A stretch of DNA of 64,000 bases, taken from NCBI GenBank assembly GCA_963701025.1, contig OY969557.1, forward strand, positions 506,042 to 570,041, written 5' to 3'. The position numbers and the translations under genes are program-made. Source of the stretch: an uncultured bacterium. GTDB lineage: Bacteria; Patescibacteriota; Minisyncoccia; Phycocordibacterales; PALSA-1337. The notes below the pieces were generated by a model that saw nothing but the letters and a program-made list of their open reading frames with translations, made no database searches and was not told the DNA's origin. Positions 46,824 to 57,391 of this stretch are shown here, piece after piece (within the stretch, counting starts at the first letter, position 1; every line of letters starts with the position of its first letter).

Positions 46824-48044
46824 CTAATTGATAGCATTCACCAGCGAATACATCGGACTGATCATGGAGACCGCGAAGAAACCGACGGCCGCGCCGATGA
46901 CGAGCATCAGGAACGGCTCGATCACCGTGGACATGTCCTTCGTCTTCTGGTCTACGTCTTCTTCGTAATAACGGGCGACGCCCTGGAGCATCTCTCCCGT
47001 CTTGCCAGTCTCTTCGCCGACCGAGAGCATTTCGACGAAGAAGGCCGGAAAGAGCTTTTCGTGCTCGCTGAAGACCTTGGACATGAGATCGCCCTTCTTG
47101 ATGGCTTCGCCCGCCTGGACCAGGACCGCCCGGAAATGGACGTTCTGGACCACCGCCGCGGTGATCGACATGGACTCGACTATATCGACCCCGGATCCGA
47201 TGAGCGATGACAGGGTACGGGCCGTCCGGGCGGTATTGACTTCTTGGACCAAGCTACCGATGATCGGTATCTTCAGCATGACGGCGTGTATGACATTCTT
47301 GCCGGAGGGCTTGCGCGACCACCAGACATAAGCCCCGATAACGATGACTAGCGCGAGGAAAACGAACAGGCCCTGGTGCTGGACCGTATCGCTTATATCC
47401 AATATTACCTGCGTGGTGAAAGGCAGTTGGACGTGAAGGCTGGTGAAAGTGCTCAAAAGAGTCGGTATGACGAAGATGAACATCAGTATGGCTATGATGA
47501 TCATGGCGCAAAGGATGATCGCCGGATACATCATGGCGCCACGGATGCGCCGCTCAAGGGCGAATGTGCTCTCCATCTGGGTAGCCACAGCTTTGAGTGA
47601 ATCGGCTAGCGTGCCCGACTGCTCGCCGGCATGGACCATGGATATGAGTAGAGCGGAAAAGACTTTCGGATGGTGCGACAATGCCTCGGCGAACGTCGTG
47701 CCGCGGTTCACGTCGGATATGACGGCGGTGATGACTTCGGTCAAGGCTTTGTTATGCGACTGTTTCTGCAGGACGGCGAGGGCTCGCGAGAGAGCCAAGC
47801 CCGCTTCGAGCATCGAACCAAGGTTGCGGGCGAAGTTGATCTTGTCTATTGCTTTCACATGCTTCAAAAAGCCGATATTGAGGTTCATTTTCAGGCCTTT
47901 GCGGGCAGTCTTTTCTTCCACGGAGACCAGCTCGTCTCCGCTTTCTCGGATGATGCGGTAGAGCTCGTAGCGGTCGGCGGCGTCCCGTTCGCTCGAGTAG
48001 ACTTCCCCGCCGGGCTTTTTCGCTTTGAAGGTGAAATGAGACAT
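46824..48044 (-). CDS. pilC: Type IV pilus assembly platform protein PilC (GspF family)
   Basis: Two GspF repeats and three TM segments, 406 aa, intact. Confidence 0.9.
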   Translation of the reverse strand: MSHFTFKAKKPGGEVYSSERDAADRYELYRIIRESGDELVSVEEKTARKGLKMNLNIGFLKHVKAIDKINFARNLGSMLEAGLALSRALAVLQKQSHNKALTEVITAVISDVNRGTTFAEALSHHPKVFSALLISMVHAGEQSGTLADSLKAVATQMESTFALERRIRGAMMYPAIILCAMIIIAILMFIFVIPTLLSTFTSLHVQLPFTTQVILDISDTVQHQGLFVFLALVIVIGAYVWWSRKPSGKNVIHAVMLKIPIIGSLVQEVNTARTARTLSSLIGSGVDIVESMSITAAVVQNVHFRAVLVQAGEAIKKGDLMSKVFSEHEKLFPAFFVEMLSVGEETGKTGEMLQGVARYYEEDVDQKTKDMSTVIEPFLMLVIGAAVGFFAVSMISPMYSLVNAIN

Positions 48045-48215
48045 TATCGCTCTTGATTTTAGCTCGGAATGAGGTTGTGGACAACCGCTTGACTTTTAGC
48101 GAGCGTTCGCATAGGATTTAGCCATGAAAGGCTGGGGAGAGAGCGTGATGCCGCGAGCCGGCCTTTCTCCCCAAAAGAGCGTGTCCTAGGTCTAGGGCCC
48201 GCTCTTTTGGGTTTT

Positions 48216-48896
48216 CTACCATATTTTCCGGAGATACTTCTTATCGATGACTTTGCGTAAATCCTTGTTCTTGCCGGTAAAATGGTCTTTGAGCGCGCCG
48301 CTTATTAGGTCTGACATCTGCATGGCATTCACGTATTCGGAGTTCACGTGAGTGATATGTCTTATCCGTCGAATAGTCTTGGTGTTCACTCTGTCTAAAA
48401 GATACTTGTTGAAATTATCGAATTTACCTTTGAACATGCGCCTGTCCGCTCGATCGATGACGACTTCAGCTTCAATTAAATTCTGGATTTTCGCCGTGAA
48501 TAGAACAAGCTTTGACAGATTGTAGTCGTCAAAAATATTGTGGAGCTTGGCGTCATCTTTCACGGCAAACTTGCCTTTATATTTAGCCTTGTCGATCAAG
48601 CGATAATATACGGTAATGCCTAGCTGATTGATGATATCCAGCAATTCTTCGTACATATCCAAAGGGATGATAGTCGATTTTATCTCGCTCTTGAAGCCGA
48701 ACTTATTCCTTATCTCCATGATCTTGTTTTCCAAGGCAAAAAGCTTCGCGGAATCCAGATAAACGGCGGAGAGTATGTAGAAAAGACTGGATCCTGTAGG
48801 AATTTTGTTGCCGGCGGCATCAATATCAAAAGGCTTGCCGGGATCTCCGGATTCGTCGACGAAGATGTAATGTTGCGCGTTTGCCATGCGCGACAT
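48216..48896 (-). CDS. DUF3800 domain protein (AT-rich island)
   Basis: N-terminal YIFVDESGDPG is a DUF3800 hallmark. Low GC. Confidence 0.6.
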   Translation of the reverse strand: MSRMANAQHYIFVDESGDPGKPFDIDAAGNKIPTGSSLFYILSAVYLDSAKLFALENKIMEIRNKFGFKSEIKSTIIPLDMYEELLDIINQLGITVYYRLIDKAKYKGKFAVKDDAKLHNIFDDYNLSKLVLFTAKIQNLIEAEVVIDRADRRMFKGKFDNFNKYLLDRVNTKTIRRIRHITHVNSEYVNAMQMSDLISGALKDHFTGKNKDLRKVIDKKYLRKIW

Positions 48897-48912
48897 TGTA
48901 GCATTTATCTAT

Positions 48913-49197
48913 TTACCTTTGTCGATATTCCGTCAATATCTCCTGCGGCGACTTTCCTTTGAGCGCTTTGTGCGGAAAATAATTCCAAGCGTCGGTAACT
49001 GTTTCCAATACATTGCTCAAGTTTTCTATGTCGCCATCGTCGAACATAGCGATGATGTGCTGAAAATCGTCATTGTCTTCTTCTAGGTATATTGAAACAA
49101 TCACGTCGTCCACGCTAAAATCGCTGTTCGTCTCTTTCAACAATTCTGCAAGCTCCATTTTGAGCTCGGTGCGGCGAGCAAGGATGGGTTGGGACAT
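48913..49197 (-). CDS. Hypothetical acidic protein (94 aa), AT-rich island
   Basis: Clean ORF between the DUF3800 gene and the R-M gene. No recognisable motif. Confidence 0.35.
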   Translation of the reverse strand: MSQPILARRTELKMELAELLKETNSDFSVDDVIVSIYLEEDNDDFQHIIAMFDDGDIENLSNVLETVTDAWNYFPHKALKGKSPQEILTEYRQR

Positions 49198-49209
49198 ACG
49201 AGCCGTGTT

Positions 49210-52048
49210 TCATGATTCGACGATCTTTATCTCCTCATCATTAAGCCCGTAAATCCTGTAAACTTCCTCGTCGACCTTCTTTTCGGTCTTGGATATTTCT
49301 TCCCTCATCGCCAGCCAATCATCAGAATTTTCAGCCAGCTTGCTAAGTTCTTTATGCAGAAGAAGTGTCTTATCGACTAAGGAGACGACGGCTTTTTGTT
49401 GTTCTTTGTTTCCCACGCATATCGGTATATCTAGAAGCGGACCTTTGTCGACTTGGAGTAGGTCACCCAGTTGTTTGCCTTTATTTTTCAGCCAAAAGTA
49501 TGAGAGTCTAGAATTTAGTATTCCCGTAAGATATTTCAGATCAACCCTGTCGGTCTTTATGAAATTCAAAGCACGCGAGCCGTAATACGGGTCGTTGGTG
49601 TAATAGAAACTTGGGAATTTGACTCTAACTCCACAAACAATTTTGGGACCTTTCTCAAAAAACTTCTCGTCACGTTCTCTATGAAGATAAAAGAATGGTT
49701 TATCCGGAGTACCATACTTTATCTTGGCCTCCTTCAGTACCTCTTCATATGGCTCAAAGTGTTTAAAAATGTTCGGATATTTACTTAGTTTTTTATCTTT
49801 GAAATTCTTGTCACAAATATAGAAAATGTAATAGGTTGATTCACCGCCTTCATATTTCCCTGATGCAGTATAAAATTGCTTGAGAAATTTTTGTTCATCG
49901 TCGTTATACCTACTGATGTCTTTCTCGAGAAAATATTTATCGGGCGCAGCCACTATACCTTGTCCGACCTCCTTTTCCGTAAGCTCAAAATTCTTCTTGT
50001 TCTTTATCTTATCGAAAATCGAGTTGGATTCAGTCTTGGCAAAAGTTATATTGCCTCCTATAAGTTTTTTGGGTTCAATCTCGATCTTCGTCTTTCCTTC
50101 GATCATATCGGCTACCAATTTGTCTTCCGCGACATTCTTGTCGGTAACCTTCAAATAATTCACTTCGTATTTTTCGCCCGGTTTCTTCTTTTCAAAGACA
50201 AATATCATAGTCTGTATACCGGCTTCCTGAAAAATCTTGTAATCGCAAAAATCAATAAATGTCTTCAACTCCCCATCTTTTAATGTCTTGTCCCTAAAGA
50301 TGCTGGCTCCAGCGTTTGTGACCCAGTTATTCGGCGCGATAAAGCCCAATCTACCACCTCCTTCTTTTAGAAGATCAATCGCGACACAAGCGAACATGGT
50401 CCAAATGTCCATTTTTCCTTGGTAATACGGACTTTCATGCAAACCGTCAAATGCCGCTTTATTGACGAATTCCTTGATATACGGTGGATTTCCAATGATC
50501 ACGTCGAATCCTCCCTGCTTGAATACCACTGGGAACTCTTCCCGCCAATTGAACGCCTTCTTGTCGCGCCAATTCGCTCCGAATCTGTCTTTCAATTCAG
50601 AGTCCGTGCCCGAGACTAGGGAATTGCCATTCTTTATGTTACCTCCAAGGTTAGGTAGCTTTATCTTTGCGTCAAAAGTATTCAAAAGAAGATTGAGGCG
50701 GGCGATTTCAACCGCCTGTTGATCGAGATCGACGCCGTAAATATTCTGCTCCAGCACTCGTGACCGCAGGAGCGGATCTTTGGGATCGCTTCCGAATCCT
50801 TCGTATTTCTTCAAGACCAAATCAAAAGCAGAGACTAGAAAGGAGCCAGACCCGCAGGCCGGATCAAGTATTTTCACTTCTTGCAGATCGGCAATAGTCC
50901 GACATGAATCCAGCACTGGGCCCAAGGTGTTTTTCACGATGTACTCGACGACAAATTTGGGGGTATAATAGATGCCCTGTTCTTTTCGCTTGCGCAGATT
51001 CTGGCTTCCTTCCGCGCTTGTGCCGTCTTTTTTCTTTTCCTTGGATTTTTGTAGCCTGTAACCAAGATAATTTTCATAAACACTGCCAAGTACGTCCGCT
51101 GGTATGATCGAAAAATCATATTCAAAATAGGTGTCGCGGCCGTATAAAATCTCTATAACTTCCTTTGTGGCGTCGTTGTATTCTTCCCATTTCTCGAATG
51201 GATGTTCGGAAAATAGATTCGAGTTATATATCTTGTCCAACTCACGGAACTTACCGATCATGGCTTGATACAAGCTTCCTTCATTTTTACCGGCCGTCCT
51301 GTCCGCTAGCCACTGGTGCAACATCGGTCTTAATGTCGGCGGTTCGATCTTCCTGTCCTCCGCCACCCGTATAAAAACCATCCTGTCGATTAAGCTTCTG
51401 AACCTCCTCGTCGATCAGATGAGAATCGACTCCGGTATTCCATATTTCAAAGGCCTTAGTCAGTAGACCTCGGCATTCATTCATGTCCTTGGACAGGCTC
51501 TCGGTCACTGAAACCTTTTGCGCTTTTTTGCCGTGTTGCTCGGCTTCTTTATCAATGAGAGACTGCCCGAAAGATTCTTTGGATAAAAGCCAGAGTTGAT
51601 CGAATCTGCTCTCGTACTCCGAGCTTGAGATCTCAAAATATTTTTTGCTGAACAGACTCTTGTCCGGACTTAAAGCATTGAATACGATCGTCGTCTCGAA
51701 GTTCGAAAGAATTGCCCATGTAACGCCCTTATTCCACGAATAACGAATGGCTTGTTGGGCATACTCGTCATCATGCATCTTGTCCGTTTTGAGCGGCTTT
51801 GCTTCAAGATAGAATTTTATAAAGCCGTTAAGGTAGAAACCATAGTCGACTCGCTTACCAGATATCTGCTCTTCCGCCGTGACTTCGGCCCGGTTAGACA
51901 CGTCCCAACCGAGTGCCTCAAAAAGCGGTAAAATAAAGTCTTTCTTAGTGTCTTCTTCGCTGAAGTCTCTAATTTTATTAGCGGCTTTGATGTCGTCATA
52001 TTTTTCCACGAGATCCTGAACTGCCAGTCTTGCTTCATCTTTGGTCAT
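49210..52048 (-). CDS. Type IIG restriction-modification enzyme (N-terminal PD-(D/E)xK nuclease + N6-adenine methyltransferase + target-recognition region), one frameshift near 51380
   Basis: N-terminal part: SEEDTKKDFILPLFEALGWD...VDYGF...LEAK (nuclease). C-terminal part: DPACGSGSFL (motif I) and IIGNPPY (motif IV). The two ORFs overlap by about 95 nt in different frames. Confidence 0.7.
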
Positions 52049-52087
52049 ATGTATTCAGAATCTTAACATGTAAAACCTCCCCAATAA

Positions 52088-53837
52088 CTATTCGCTCACC
52101 ACCCTCAACACCTCCTCTATCGTCGTCAGCCCTTCCGCGCATTTATATATGCCATCCTCCAGCATGGTCAGCATGCCCTCTTTCTTGGCCTGAACCTCTA
52201 TCTCGCGTCGAAGTGGCGCTCTTTCATGATGAGGTCTTTGATGCTCTGGCTCATCTTCAAGACCTCATGGATGCCGACGCGGCCCTTGAAGCCGTCGTCA
52301 TCGCGCCCCGGCCGACCGGCTTTGTAGAACTATATGTCTTTCCAAGTCATCGCTCTGCTTGACGATCTTTTCCGTCTTGAGGGCGTCCAGGACGCGGTTC
52401 AGGTCCACGAGCTTCTCCAACTGGGCGAACTCGGCCTTGGACAAGGCATATGCTGCCTTGGTGTCGGTCAGACGGCGGACCAGGCGCTGGCCGATGACGA
52501 TATCCAGAGTCGAGACCAGCAGGAACGGCTCGACTTTCATGTCGAGGAGGCGCGGGATGGCGCCGGCGGCGCTATTGGTGTGCAAGAGTCGAGAGCACCA
52601 AGTGGCCGGTCAGGGAAGCATTGACGGCCAAGAGCGGCCGTCTCGTTGTCGCGGATCTCTCCGACCATGATGATGTCCGGATCCTGGCGGACCAGAGTGC
52701 GTATGCCCTGGGCGAAGGAGAAGCCGATCTCCGGCCTGACCTGGGTCTGGTTGATGCGGGCCATCTGGTATTCGATCGGGTCCTCGATGGTGGAGATGTT
52801 CACGTCAGGCGTGTTCAGGATATCGAGCATGGTATAGAGCGTCGTCGTTTTGCCGGAGCCGGTCGGGCCGGTGGTCAGTATCATGCCCGTCGTCTGGTTC
52901 AGGGCTTTGTGGATGCGCTCCAAGGCTCTCGCCGTGGAAGTGCAGGATACTCCAGAGTGAAGCCGGATATGCTCTCGCGCAGGAGGCGCATGACGATCTT
53001 TTCGCCATAGTATGTCGGCAGTATGGACACGCGGAAGGAGACTTTCTCGTTGGTCAGGTCGACTTTGAAACGGCCGTCCTGCGGCAGGCGCTTCTCGTCG
53101 AGCTTCAGATTCGAGAGCACCTTGATGCGCGCGGACACGGACGGCCCGGCGGCTTTCGCGGCAGGACCATGGCGTCATGCAAGAGGCCGTCGATGCGGTA
53201 GCGCACGAGCACCTGTTCTTCCATCGGCTCGATATGGATGTCAGATGCGTTCTGCAATATGGCGTGCTTGACCAGCGTGTCCACGATGCGCACCACCGGC
53301 AGATCGTCGGCCAGCTTCTTCAGGTCTTCTTCCGATGCCGCTTCCCCCTTTTCCTCCGAGATCATCTTCAGGGTCTCCGTTTCCTTCTGGATGATATCGC
53401 CGAACTCCGCTTTGAGCGACTTCTGGTATTGGACCAGCGCGTCCTTGACCGAATCGCTGTCGGTCAGGCGCGGCAATATCTTCAGGTTCACCTTCTTCTT
53501 GATGAAGTCGATGGCCGACAGGTCGTTCACGTCCAGCATGGCCACTTCCAGCGAGACGTCGTTCTTCTTGAAAGCGACGATGTTGTGACCGCGGGCGATC
53601 GGCTCGGGTATGAGCGAGAGCACCTCGAACGGCAGTTTTCTTGCCTTTAAGATCCACGAACGGGATGCCCAGCACGTACGCCTGCATGCGCCGCAGATTG
53701 TCCGCGGTTATCTTGCCTTGGCGTGACGAGCGTATCGCCCAGGCGCTTATTCTTTTTATCCGCCTCTGTTCTTGGCATTCTCCAGGTCGTCCTTGGTTAC
53801 GAGACCGGAGTCGAGGATGAATTTATAGAGCTGGGTG
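52088..53837 (-). pseudogene. pilB: Type IV pilus assembly ATPase PilB/GspE, heavily degraded (at least 8 frameshifts)
   Basis: The T2SSE N-terminal domain, Walker A ([12 protein letters not shown]), Asp box, Walker B ([10 protein letters not shown]), His box ([11 protein letters not shown]) and the C-terminus are each recovered in a different frame. Two sites resolved at nucleotide level are +1 insertions (CTT[g]GCC and CTT[g]CAC on the coding strand). Confidence 0.8.
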
Positions 53838-53894
53838 TCTTCGATGAGCATTATGCCCTATATTCTATCAGATAATTGGTTTGGTGTTATAATG

Positions 53895-54431
53895 AAGCCA
53901 ATGACACGTTTGCAACAATTATTACTCTTTATTCTGGATAGGGCCCAAAAAGAAGGTAAGTCTGAATTGTCCCAGTTTCAACTCTTCAAAATACCCTATC
54001 TTTTGCAAGTATATTCCTTGAAATACGCGGGAACCCCTTTTATCGCGGACGCATATTTCGTCAGGGAAAAGAACGGACCAATCTCCATAGAGATATATAC
54101 GGCGCTGAAGAATCTGGAATCAGACGGTTATGTTAAAAAAGAGATTAGGGAAAACAAAGAATACGGTTTCCCCAAACATGCATTCAGCCTTAGTAAAGAT
54201 ATACCAAAACTTGATTTTGACGCGGGTGAAATCATCTTTTTGGATAATTTCCTTTCAGAATTACTCCCGTTGACTCAGGCAAAGCTGAAAGAGAAAGCTT
54301 ACGCAACCGAGCCGATGCAGGAGATCCAAGGAAGAGAAAAGAAGGGGCGTGTACTAAAGGGCGCTCCGTTAAATTTTGCCAGCATTTCAGTCGATCCTGA
54401 CGTGGTGGACTCGTATTCAGATGAATTTTAA
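53895..54431 (+). CDS. Panacea-domain (DUF4065/SocA-like) putative antitoxin
   Basis: MTRLQQLLLFILDRA...FQLFKIPYLLQVYSL...YFVREKNGPISIEIY matches the Panacea pattern (KLQKLLYFA...GPV). The ORF is open from 53835. Confidence 0.6.
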   Translation, partial: KPMTRLQQLLLFILDRAQKEGKSELSQFQLFKIPYLLQVYSLKYAGTPFIADAYFVREKNGPISIEIYTALKNLESDGYVKKEIRENKEYGFPKHAFSLSKDIPKLDFDAGEIIFLDNFLSELLPLTQAKLKEKAYATEPMQEIQGREKKGRVLKGAPLNFASISVDPDVVDSYSDEF

Positions 54432-54852
54432 TGTCGGGGATATATTATATTTTGATCAGTACCAATTCACGGATACTGGAGAACTAAAGCCTCATTTCGG
54501 ACTTGTCTTACTGCCTGAACGAGCCACCGAATACCAGAACAGCGTCTTGTGCTCCGTGATCACATCAAAGGAACCTCGAGTATGGGGTCTCTTACTCTTA
54601 CAAGCGTCTTATCCGTGTTTCAGATGCGATTCGTATGCGTGTTTCGACAGAAAAGATCTCGTATCAAAAAGTGGCCTTAGCAACAAGAGCCAACCTGTCG
54701 GCTCATTAACTAAAGGAGATTTAGTAAAAGCCTTTAAGATACTCCGGAAATCTCTTTTCGTGATCAGCGATCTGGGAAAAAGTCCATACTTCAGAGCAGC
54801 TATCATATATCAATGGAAGGTCGCGTTAGGTATGACTTCTAGTTTATATTGA
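54424..54852 (+). CDS. Putative toxin partner of the Panacea-domain protein (family unknown; weak MazF/PemK-like N-terminus)
   Basis: Its ATG overlaps the upstream stop (ATGAATTTTAATG). N-terminal VGDILYFDQYQF...HFGLVLLP is reminiscent of the MazF GDI...RP.LV segment. Confidence 0.4.
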   Translation, partial: NFNVGDILYFDQYQFTDTGELKPHFGLVLLPERATEYQNSVLCSVITSKEPRVWGLLLLQASYPCFRCDSYACFDRKDLVSKSGLSNKSQPVGSLTKGDLVKAFKILRKSLFVISDLGKSPYFRAAIIYQWKVALGMTSSLY

Positions 54853-54996
54853 TTAGGTCATACCTGAACCATTACGGTCAATTTACCAAAATGGTTTCAC
54901 TATGTTCTAATTTTCCGGCGGTTTTTTGTAAGAAAAAACCACGCAAGCTGTTAAGCGAGCGTGGTGAAGGTTCTTGAACTCCCTCAAACGTAAGGA

Positions 54997-56253
54997 CTAT
55001 TTGACCGTCAATCTGCTCTCAACCCTTTCGAGCACTTCGATGTAAAAACGGAATGGCAATGAGATGCCATCCTTCACACACCGATTGTTGAACAGGTTGA
55101 TGCGGTAATTGACGCTATTCATCCAAATGTTGAGAAGTTGCTCGTCCCGAACATTCGGGTGAACGACGAAGTTCGGAGTATCGTTGCCAGGACATCTCCA
55201 AACGGCGCCGTCATAGTGGATATATAAGCCATGAGTCAACTGATTGCATGGAGCTAGCCCGATGTATGGATGGGCTCCTTCGTGTTTCAATTGCTCTAGA
55301 CTCATAACACCGCGCTCGATCGTCCAAGCATAGACATCGACTGCCATATCAATGTAATCCTGTTCGAATTTGGCGTCGTGCGCAGACTTGACCAACTTGT
55401 GCCCTTTGCCGCTAACCATGGTCGGCGGGATATACACCGGGATGTTTCTTTCCACTCCCCAACGATATATCTCGAATGCGCCGTCGATGTTCTGTGCCGT
55501 AACAGGCGCACAAGCAATGACGATCCTCTGCTTCATCAGATCAGCATTCATTCCGGCCTCGCACAAACGTTCGACAGCTATATTGCGGGCCAGATGGTAA
55601 TCGAACTCCTGACCGAATTCCCTTTTGTTCTGGGGAATGAATACGCCATTCTCGAAGGCGGGGTCAAATGAACGGCCGCCGACTAAGAACGTAGTGTTTG
55701 GATATGACACCAGACGCCGAACCAATTCCTCCGAACCGATACCGAGGTAATGCTGGGACAAAGCGTCATTGCCCATGATCGCACCCTTAGTGAATATTCC
55801 AACCACGATATCCCGTTCAGCGAACCCATCGAGGATTTGGAACAACTCCGGGTTCGCCAGTAGCTCTCCCGGACCGAGGAATTTCACCGATTCAAGGCCA
55901 AGCTCCTTTGCCTGGTCTATGACATTCATGACCTCGGCTAGGCTCATTATCGGATTGTGCAGTTCGGCATTGTTGAAACAGCCGGGGCACTGATGTGGAC
56001 AGGGATAATTCTGGCTGAATAACCCCTTGGCCTCCTCGGGCGTGGCTGCGCCATTTATCATGGCGGCAAAGTCCGCACGAGGGATATTTATGTCCAAGGT
56101 AAGCATCTTTTTGACCAGCTTATCTCTGATATTGACCGTTTCACCGATCCGGTCTTCTGGATAGCTCCACTTGTGGACCATCAATCGGAATCCTTCCGGA
56201 ATCTTGCCTTTCGGCGGCAAAACCGGAGGGACATTTGGAAACTGATTTTTCAT
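54997..56253 (-). CDS. Radical SAM domain protein of unknown substrate
   Basis: CPHQCPGC (Cx3Cx2C) cluster. SD AAGGA before the ATG at 56253; the ORF track extends to a TTG at 56277. Confidence 0.7.
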   Translation of the reverse strand: MKNQFPNVPPVLPPKGKIPEGFRLMVHKWSYPEDRIGETVNIRDKLVKKMLTLDINIPRADFAAMINGAATPEEAKGLFSQNYPCPHQCPGCFNNAELHNPIMSLAEVMNVIDQAKELGLESVKFLGPGELLANPELFQILDGFAERDIVVGIFTKGAIMGNDALSQHYLGIGSEELVRRLVSYPNTTFLVGGRSFDPAFENGVFIPQNKREFGQEFDYHLARNIAVERLCEAGMNADLMKQRIVIACAPVTAQNIDGAFEIYRWGVERNIPVYIPPTMVSGKGHKLVKSAHDAKFEQDYIDMAVDVYAWTIERGVMSLEQLKHEGAHPYIGLAPCNQLTHGLYIHYDGAVWRCPGNDTPNFVVHPNVRDEQLLNIWMNSVNYRINLFNNRCVKDGISLPFRFYIEVLERVESRLTVK

Positions 56254-56433
56254 ATTATCCTTTCTTGTTGATTTCAAAGATCAACACGTTGTTTTTGTTT
56301 TCTGACTTGACTACCTGAACATAGTATAGCATTATAATACATTCCTGTCAACGGAAATCGTCAATAAAATCATCATATTTCCTTTATTAATCAATATATT
56401 TACCAATATCAACATATTTTTGTGGAATGTTAT

Positions 56434-56461
56434 TGACACAAACAATTATTTTGATAGAATT
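56434..56461 (+). promoter_or_regulatory. Sigma70-like promoter (TTGACA-N17-TAGAAT) giving a near-leaderless trmB-like transcript
   Basis: TTGACAcaaacaattattttgaTAGAAT ends 8 nt before the ATG at 56470. Confidence 0.5.
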
Positions 56462-56469
56462 GATACACA

Positions 56470-57246
56470 ATGCAAAATAAAAACGCACAATTAAAATTCA
56501 CTCTTCAGTCATTCGGATTCGGAGACAAAGAGTGCAGCGTATATTTCGCTTTATTGGAATTGGGCAGAGGTACAGTCACTGAGATATCAAGGAAGGCTGG
56601 CATAAACAGGACGACCGGCTATGATATCCTCGCTTCCCTCGGAACCAAGGGTCTAGTTAATATTTCGGGTAAGGAACCAAAACAAGAATATATAGTCGAG
56701 TCCCCGGACGCACTGATGAAGTATCTTGAAGATCAATCAGCTCAATTGGCCGAGAATATCAAGAAGGCAAAGGAAACCGTGGCCGAGCTCAAGTCTATGC
56801 AGGCCTTGGAAAATCGTCCGAAGATAAAATTTTACGAAGGCACGGAAGGATTGCGCAATGTCTACGAGGACACACTCACTTCTTCCGAGAAAATACTGGC
56901 TTATGCTTGCATCGATGACATGCACAAGGCTTTGCCTGATTATTTTCCTGAATATTACAAAAGACGCGCAAAAAACGGCATCTCTATCCGTGGCATCGTA
57001 CCCAAAACCAAGGCTGGTATCGAGCGAGCCAGTCACAACGAGGAGGAAAAACGCGAGATCGCTTTCGTCCCTGCCGATAAATATTACTTCTCGCCGGAAA
57101 TAAACATCTACGACAACAAGATTATGATTGCCTCATGGAGAGAAAAGCTCGGCATTATCATCGAAAGCGCAGAGATAGCCGACGCCATGAAGAAGATCTA
57201 TAGCCTTGCTTGGGCAGAGGCTAAACGATTAAGCAATAACGCCTAA
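56470..57246 (+). CDS. TrmB-family transcriptional regulator
   Basis: N-terminal wHTH (ECSVYFALLELGRGTVTEISRKAGINRTTGYDILASLGTKGLV) plus a TrmB C-terminal domain. Confidence 0.8.
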   Translation: MQNKNAQLKFTLQSFGFGDKECSVYFALLELGRGTVTEISRKAGINRTTGYDILASLGTKGLVNISGKEPKQEYIVESPDALMKYLEDQSAQLAENIKKAKETVAELKSMQALENRPKIKFYEGTEGLRNVYEDTLTSSEKILAYACIDDMHKALPDYFPEYYKRRAKNGISIRGIVPKTKAGIERASHNEEEKREIAFVPADKYYFSPEINIYDNKIMIASWREKLGIIIESAEIADAMKKIYSLAWAEAKRLSNNA

Positions 57247-57391
57247 AAACACCATTCATGCGAAAAAGCTCATTCTGTAAACTAAGCTTGCGCTCTTTTG
57301 TATATATGATAGATTACTCCCATCAGCTCTGTTCGCCAGACCGGCGGACATTTTAGTTAGAGGCCCGAAAACTTAATAACAATTAAATAAC

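Follow-up and report, generated by a model that had tools for sequence, protein, structure and literature searches.

Two overlapping genes, panA and panT, on the plus strand of the window (the whole stretch of 64,000 nucleotides analysed here, from contig OY969557.1 of an uncultured bacterium of the Patescibacteriota lineage) likely form a type II PanAT toxin-antitoxin (TA) module. We propose that PanT is a MazF-like endoribonuclease which would act through the residue at position 25 (His or Arg) and Thr48, and that PanA would inhibit PanT by direct binding, probably via its acidic C-terminal tail. The assignment is carried by a Panacea domain in PanA, a MazF fold with aligned active-site positions in PanT, the strict pairing of the two genes in related loci, purifying selection on both, a foreign base composition and a patchy distribution. 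The module consists of the following features, in which AF2 stands for an AlphaFold2 model, pLDDT for the predicted local distance difference test and dN/dS for the ratio of nonsynonymous to synonymous substitution rates:

53892 to 54431, plus strand: panA, Panacea-domain antitoxin gene, 179 amino acids (open reading frame, Pfam, homologues, AF2, dN/dS)
53982 to 54308, plus strand: Panacea (PF13274) domain of PanA, residues ~31-139 (Pfam match)
54309 to 54428, plus strand: conserved C-terminal extension of PanA, residues 140-179, a proposed toxin-neutralising tail (conserved columns, acidity and low pLDDT; putative role)
54421 to 54431, plus strand: 11-nucleotide overlap of panA and panT, ATGAATTTTAA (read from the sequence)
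54421 to 54852, plus strand: panT, predicted gene of a divergent MazF/PemK-fold toxin, 143 amino acids, isoelectric point (pI) ~9 (AF2, Foldseek, hhalign, dN/dS)
54493 to 54495, plus strand: His25 codon of PanT, aligned with the catalytic Arg25 of Bacillus subtilis MazF (hhalign)
54562 to 54564, plus strand: Thr48 codon of PanT, in a VITS motif, aligned with the catalytic Thr48 of B. subtilis MazF (hhalign)

An earlier note on this DNA, made from the letters alone, had described two overlapping open reading frames divergent from pilB. Both frames are confirmed on the plus strand with an overlap of 11 nucleotides (nt), and pilB is indeed encoded on the minus strand, where it starts at 53851 at a distance of 40 nt from panA. 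The four peptides quoted in that note are all present (LQQLLLFIL and YFVREKNGPIS in PanA, VGDILYFDQY and GLVLLP in PanT). Two details had to be corrected: the start given as 53895 falls 3 nt inside panA, which begins with an ATG at 53892 and ends with a TAA stop at 54429-54431, and the partner given as 142 residues long has 143. An alternative ATG at 53901 (Met4) would yield a PanA of 176 residues, and most homologues begin at the equivalent Met. The 11-nt overlap implies translational coupling of panA and panT. When the two genes were compared with a related locus of 84% identity (L018; dS 0.7-0.9), dN/dS was 0.039 for panA and 0.043 for panT, which shows that both are under strong purifying selection. 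Since dN/dS is about 0.04, the homologues form tens of clusters and each related locus examined has panA and panT side by side, both are real genes.

To the sequence libraries PanT is nearly invisible. It had no match in Pfam (E ≤ 1), NCBIfam, PADLOC or PHROG, and no PDB sequence was matched with either the single protein or the family profile as the query. Weak sub-threshold matches to the Pfam family PemK_toxin were found in 11 of 38 PanT relatives (best E 5.6e-4), and one relative from JGI carries the name 'mRNA-degrading endonuclease toxin of MazEF'. The AF2 model of PanT, built on 26 family sequences, has a pLDDT of 91.1 and a predicted TM-score (pTM) of 0.86, and contains a five-strand barrel followed by two helices. 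Foldseek comparison of this model with the PDB returned 69 matches at E ≤ 1e-3, and the top 50 were all MazF/EndoA/MoxT endoribonucleases (TMt 0.67-0.83), with B. subtilis MazF (4mdx_A, E 2.6e-6, TMt 0.79) as the best match. By hhalign, the PanT family aligned with a MazF/Kid/ChpBK/Mtb-MazF profile over 110 columns at 94.1% probability (E 1.2e-7), a profile of seven sequences of which B. subtilis MazF alone was verified, as identical to 4ME7_A. Against the single B. subtilis MazF, residues 2-54 of PanT aligned without gaps (E 0.0028). The identity of PanT to MazF proteins is about 15-19%, and the PanT proteins are basic (pI 9.0-9.5).

Taken together, the results show that PanT is a very divergent member of the MazF/PemK superfamily and represents a new sequence subfamily, not a new fold. 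The earlier note had seen only a 'faint MazF/PemK-like' N-terminus, which the model, the Foldseek matches and the hhalign result bear out, and the structure prediction that it recommended for the partner gave the confident MazF-fold model described above. Its idea of a possible new toxin family holds for a sequence subfamily left unclassified by the libraries, and fails for anything deeper given the MazF fold and the published PanA:MazF-like pairs. A new toxin fold was therefore rejected, on the Foldseek top 50 and the hhalign match to MazF/Kid.

The alignment with MazF takes in the active-site positions. His25 and Thr48 of PanT were placed by hhalign on Arg25 and Thr48 of B. subtilis MazF, two residues which have been reported as crucial for MazF activity (Simanshu 2013, as cited in PMC11130411). 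At position 25, 76 of 89 family sequences have His and the remaining 13 have Arg; at position 48, 83 have Thr and 3 have Ser. In the same 89 sequences Ser-49, Arg-77 and Asp-79 are also near-invariant, and Tyr-14, Asp-18 and the pair Gln-91-Pro-92 are further invariant residues specific to the family. Residues 117-143 of PanT lie beyond the MazF alignment.

PanA matched the Pfam family PF13274 (SocA_Panacea) with 29.8 bits, above the gathering cut-off of 25.7, with residues 30-138 of the translation begun at 53895 aligned to positions 1-109 of the 113 in the profile, so that the Panacea/DUF4065 assignment made in the earlier note is sustained. PanA-related partners in other loci scored 40-43.5 bits on the same family. 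PanA also matched the phage family phrog_1281 (E 3.8e-10). Its AF2 model has a pLDDT of 90.8, and Foldseek with this model found just weak winged-helix matches in the PDB (E > 0.01) and unnamed viral proteins in BFVD; since the fold searches with PanA were uninformative, the Panacea assignment rests on Pfam. PanA had no Pfam match to MazE, PemI, AbrB or ribbon-helix-helix (RHH) families, and is thus not an antitoxin of the MazEF/PemIK type. Overall, PanA is a standalone Panacea core without an N-terminal helix-turn-helix (HTH) domain, followed by an extension of about 40 residues.

In the centre of the Panacea domain, residues 66-100 of PanA (54087-54191) gave weak Pfam signals for the winged-helix families PadR, TrmB and Lrs14 (E 0.02-0.15) and Foldseek matches to PadR, ORC-WHD and MarR (E 0.014-0.3). 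A winged HTH-like element that could bind DNA may thus be hidden in the Panacea core, at a signal too weak for reliance.

The C-terminal extension is among the best-conserved parts of PanA. Its motif reads TEPMxxI..E..G..F..V.VDPDVVDxYSD, in which Thr-139, Glu-140, Pro-141, Met-142, Glu-149, Gly-157, Phe-162, Asp-168, Asp-170 and Tyr-175 are invariant or near-invariant. The last 20 residues have a net charge of -5 in the window copy and of -4 to -6 in five of five pairs, whatever the overall charge of PanA. Residues 171-179 have a pLDDT of 59 within an otherwise confident model. MazE fills the RNA groove of MazF with just such a tail, one that is conserved and acidic and that probably becomes folded when bound. 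Because of its conservation, its acidity, its low model confidence and its likeness to the MazE tail, we propose that the acidic C-terminal tail of PanA is probably, by analogy, the neutralising element.

We then consider the family as a whole. PanT homologues form 53 clusters in a database of 5.8 billion proteins and up to 62 after profile search, a size that agrees with the 65 clusters of PanA homologues, which often lie on PanT-bearing contigs and for most of which PF13274 is precomputed. An exhaustive search with a hidden Markov model (HMM) of the PanT family gave 40 representatives at 50% identity among 1.84 billion, all of them metagenomic. There was no named or RefSeq protein among the matches to the PanT family, cluster look-up returned unnamed metagenomic singletons, and profile search with distant PanT members toward named PemK/MazF proteins gave no extension. 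The PanT family is thus small and found only in metagenomes and metagenome-assembled genomes (MAGs).

The earlier note had recommended a search for homologues that always lie next to Panacea genes. In all 20 related loci (L001-L020), a full-length PanA homologue was found immediately upstream of the PanT homologue, with the two genes overlapping by 4-11 nt or spaced by 1-14 nt. PanA homologues of the main family are 43-93% identical to the window copy, and that of L017, the most distant locus, is 30% identical. The pairing was also seen with the most distant PanT members, two at 46-48% identity (P0053 and P0051) and one at 24% (P0091), the last having an upstream gene with a weak Panacea match. 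The flanks of the related loci represent at least ten different contexts, among them a pseudouridine synthase with FolD, an FAD oxidoreductase, an HD-domain protein, the delta' subunit of DNA polymerase III and a serine recombinase, and the two-gene unit alone is conserved. The arrangement of pilB, panAT and nusA is common only to the closest relatives (L008 and L018-L020). Accordingly, the TA-type gene pair proposed in the earlier note is a conserved, overlapping two-gene module.

The GC content of panAT is 0.40-0.44, as compared with 0.56-0.62 in the flanking pilB and about 0.6 in nusA. In GTDB, scanned with one genome per species, the PanT family occurs in at least seven species, all of them MAGs; the contig scan used one narrow peptide pattern, which makes seven a lower bound. 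Three of these species belong to Patescibacteria/Paceibacterota, and the others to Aminicenantes, Ratteibacteria and Omnitrophota, with one unclassified. The hosts of the family overall are uncultivated Patescibacteria, Aminicenantes, Ratteibacteria, Omnitrophota and Nitrospirota. With tblastn, PanT was not found in plasmid or phage collections, and PanA was not found in the plasmid collection. The distribution of panAT is patchy and horizontally spread, as is typical of TA modules.

A partnership of PanA with a MazF-like PanT is of an already known kind. The definition of Panacea and PanA goes back to Kurata et al. (2022, PMC8832971), who catalogued 1,268 putative PanT toxins, with PemK among the domains recognised by CDD. 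The PanTs of Pseudomonas moraviensis and Bifidobacterium ruminantium in that study had no CDD match and were EndoA/PemK/MazF-like by HHpred; both were toxic, specifically inhibited protein synthesis and were neutralised by their own PanA (PMC8832971). The clusters T5, T6 and T8 of its Dataset S1 contain 'noNTD' PanAs in the order antitoxin-toxin with overlaps of -1, -4, -8 and -11, and their toxins, annotated as 'hypothetical protein', are MazF/PemK at 99% by HHpred (PMC8832971). Their listed members include WP_116809181.1 (T5), WP_083201923.1 (T6, the PanT of P. moraviensis) and WP_110948703.1 (T8). The pair in the window resembles these clusters in having a standalone Panacea antitoxin upstream, a small overlap and a toxin that is MazF-like only by profile or structure comparison. 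Unlike T5, T6 and T8, which come from cultured Proteobacteria, Bacteroidetes and Actinobacteria, the pair described here resides in uncultivated lineages. Since the HMM search gave only metagenomic or MAG proteins, none named MazF or PemK by NCBI, the PanT family is probably a cluster separate from T5, T6 and T8, with which it was compared by description only.

Among the classical toxins, PanT shares with MazF, EndoA and PemK/Kid (PF02452; 4MDX and 4ME7) the SH3-like barrel with a C-terminal helix, profile homology, Thr48, a basic character and an ionisable or basic residue at position 25. Unlike MazF, PanT scores below the Pfam threshold, has His for the catalytic Arg in most members and carries about 27 extra C-terminal residues that form a second helix with a Trp-Lys pair. 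The antitoxin differs from those of MazEF and PemIK in being Panacea instead of MazE or PemI (AbrB or RHH type).

The antitoxin domain, SocA_Panacea, is also that of Caulobacter SocAB, a type VI system. In SocAB, however, the toxin is SocB and not a MazF-fold protein, and the proteolytic-adaptor mechanism is not expected for panAT. Ernits et al. (2023, PMC10440598) reported that a standalone Panacea is able to neutralise directly and that appended C-terminal elements such as Phd-C can also neutralise, with Phd-C, ZBD and PAD1 being 'linear' neutralisers attached to Panacea. Like the Doc:PanA pair with Phd-C (PMC10440598), PanA has a Panacea core with a short C-terminal extension that is possibly the neutralising element, although its tail does not resemble Phd-C in sequence and the two toxins differ in fold.

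With the panAT family, which falls into about 60 clusters at 90% identity and comes exclusively from MAGs and metagenomes, the list of MazF-fold toxins partnered with the hyperpromiscuous Panacea grows by one uncharacterised sequence family. The family also carries this partnership into candidate phyla that were absent among the taxa looked up in the RefSeq-based PanAT table of Kurata et al. It brings neither a new toxin fold nor a new principle; the change of Arg to His and the acidic tail of PanA are concrete hypotheses that can be tested cheaply.

From these comparisons we propose the following working model. The module would be chromosomally resident and horizontally acquired, and panA and panT would be co-transcribed and translationally coupled through the 11-nt overlap. 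By analogy with MazF, PanT may be a basic, ribosome-independent endoribonuclease that works as a homodimer. The groove between the two subunits would take up the RNA, which would be cut by transphosphorylation involving its 2'-OH. The putative catalytic pair consists of Thr48 and residue 25, which is His in the window copy and in most relatives but Arg in the others. PanT activity is predicted to stop translation and arrest growth. Through direct binding PanA would keep PanT inactive, most likely by inserting its conditionally folded acidic tail into the RNA groove in the manner of MazE. PanT would be set free once PanA is lost or triggered, be it through proteolysis or through a phage or stress signal perceived by the Panacea domain.

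Several observations weigh against the proposal of a MazF-like ribonuclease held in check by PanA. In 85% of PanT members His stands in place of the canonical catalytic Arg, so that chemistry or substrate could differ. The extra C-terminal helix of PanT (residues 122-135), with its near-invariant Trp-132 and Lys-133, has no counterpart in MazF, and the window PanT fails to match PemK_toxin (PF02452) in Pfam even at E ≤ 1. PanA has no recognisable DNA-binding N-terminal domain that would account for autoregulation, and scans for promoters, terminators and repeats found no convincing plus-strand promoter or operator-like repeat upstream of panA. In addition, the T8 MazF-like PanT of Flavobacterium xanthum was not toxic in E. 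coli (PMC8832971).

The first two of these observations, together with the missing Pfam match and the family-specific residues Tyr-14, Asp-18, Arg-77, Asp-79 and Gln-91-Pro-92, would fit a PanT that has a MazF/CcdB-type barrel and is something other than a canonical mRNA interferase, being either toxic through another target (for example as a gyrase poison like CcdB, or as a nuclease of a specific tRNA or rRNA with His-based chemistry) or a non-catalytic binder of nucleic acid. We consider this unlikely. The Foldseek top 50 held only MazF ribonucleases and no CcdB, and the alternation of His and Arg at position 25 beside a conserved Thr48 has the look of a retained general acid/base site. Moreover, both MazF-like PanTs that have been tested inhibit translation (PMC8832971). 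A CcdB-like gyrase poison in particular was rejected: hhalign with F-plasmid CcdB gave a probability of 0.4%, as compared with the MazF profile and single-MazF alignments given above. A related and more far-reaching idea is that PanT is a MazF-fold lineage of altered chemistry or target, marked by the His for Arg, the Trp-Lys helix and its own invariant residues Tyr-14, Asp-18, Arg-77 and Asp-79, which is neutralised by a MazE-like acidic tail on a Panacea core and is confined to uncultivated bacteria such as Patescibacteria. We regard it as doubtful; if true, the tail would be another 'plug-in' neutraliser module like Phd-C, and PanT could have a specificity unlike that of known MazF proteins, for example for a particular tRNA or rRNA site.

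Two further explanations concern PanA and the role of the pair. Because Panacea is the SocA domain, and because PanA weakly matches the NCBIfam SocA_antitoxin model (E 0.0023), PanA might be a SocA-style proteolytic adaptor that hands PanT over to ClpXP instead of a stoichiometric inhibitor. Such a type VI-like mechanism seems very improbable, since the conserved acidic tail suits an inhibitor and the PanAs tested so far are described as forming complexes with their toxins and directly neutralising them (PMC8832971, PMC10440598). Membership in SocAB itself was rejected, as PanA scored 17.6 bits on the NCBIfam SocA equivalog against a cut-off of 190 and its partner has the MazF fold and is not SocB. 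It could also be that panAT serves chiefly as an abortive-infection defence against phages, with Panacea sensing a phage cue and PanT as the effector, in place of a role in addiction or stress, which differs from the preferred TA reading only in role and not in mechanism. The many accessory and defence-type genes around panAT (DUF3800, a type IIG-like restriction-modification gene and a variable downstream slot), the match of PanA to phrog_1281, a weak PADLOC match to DarG and the sensory role of Panacea proposed by Ernits et al. (PMC10440598) all speak for it. Such a primary role is nevertheless quite improbable, as neither PanA nor PanT had a significant PADLOC system match and no copy was found in the phage and plasmid collections searched. 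We therefore retain the type II PanAT module, with PanT as a MazF-like endoribonuclease, as the likely explanation of the pair.

The surroundings of panAT in the window have several features of their own. The neighbouring gene of a pilB/GspE-type ATPase (52091-53851, minus strand) is disrupted, with its fragments lying in at least four reading frames and matching positions 3-49, 61-116, 123-228 and 243-288 of the MshEN and T2SSE profiles. As compared with the intact homologues in L008 (582 residues) and L018, it has at least ten insertions of one or two bases and almost no deletions. Beside it, panAT and nusA are intact. This leaves two readings of the broken pilB, a pseudogene in decay or a local error of assembly or sequencing. 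Between panA and pilB there is a single sigma-70-like match, at 53862-53890 on the minus strand (ATAACA-17-TAGAAT with an upstream TG), which faces pilB.

Relative to the syntenic L008, the window carries an insertion of about 4.1 kb with a low GC content (0.36-0.48) at 47985-52082. It holds a DUF3800 gene (48216-48896, minus strand) and a type IIG-like restriction-modification gene in two frames, one with HSDR_N (51287-52048) and the other with Eco57I/N6_Mtase/TaqI_C (49210-51381), which overlap by 95 nt.

The slot between panT and nusA (54947-57318) varies among relatives, being empty in L008 and holding an unrelated open reading frame of 232 residues in L018. In the window it contains a radical-SAM/SPASM gene (54997-56277, minus strand) and a TrmB-family regulator (56470-57246, plus strand), and the similarity to L018-L020 extends up to 54946 and begins again at 57319. 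No Rfam family and no tRNA was found in scans of the whole window. Downstream of panT, the region 54846-54990 has an unusually stable predicted RNA fold (-42.3 kcal/mol, z = -4.2), and conservation in L018-L020 covers the first 94 nt past the panT stop. At about 54938-54966 lies a GC-rich hairpin (CCACGC...GCGTGG), which precedes a T-run when read on the minus strand and resembles a terminator of the radical-SAM gene.

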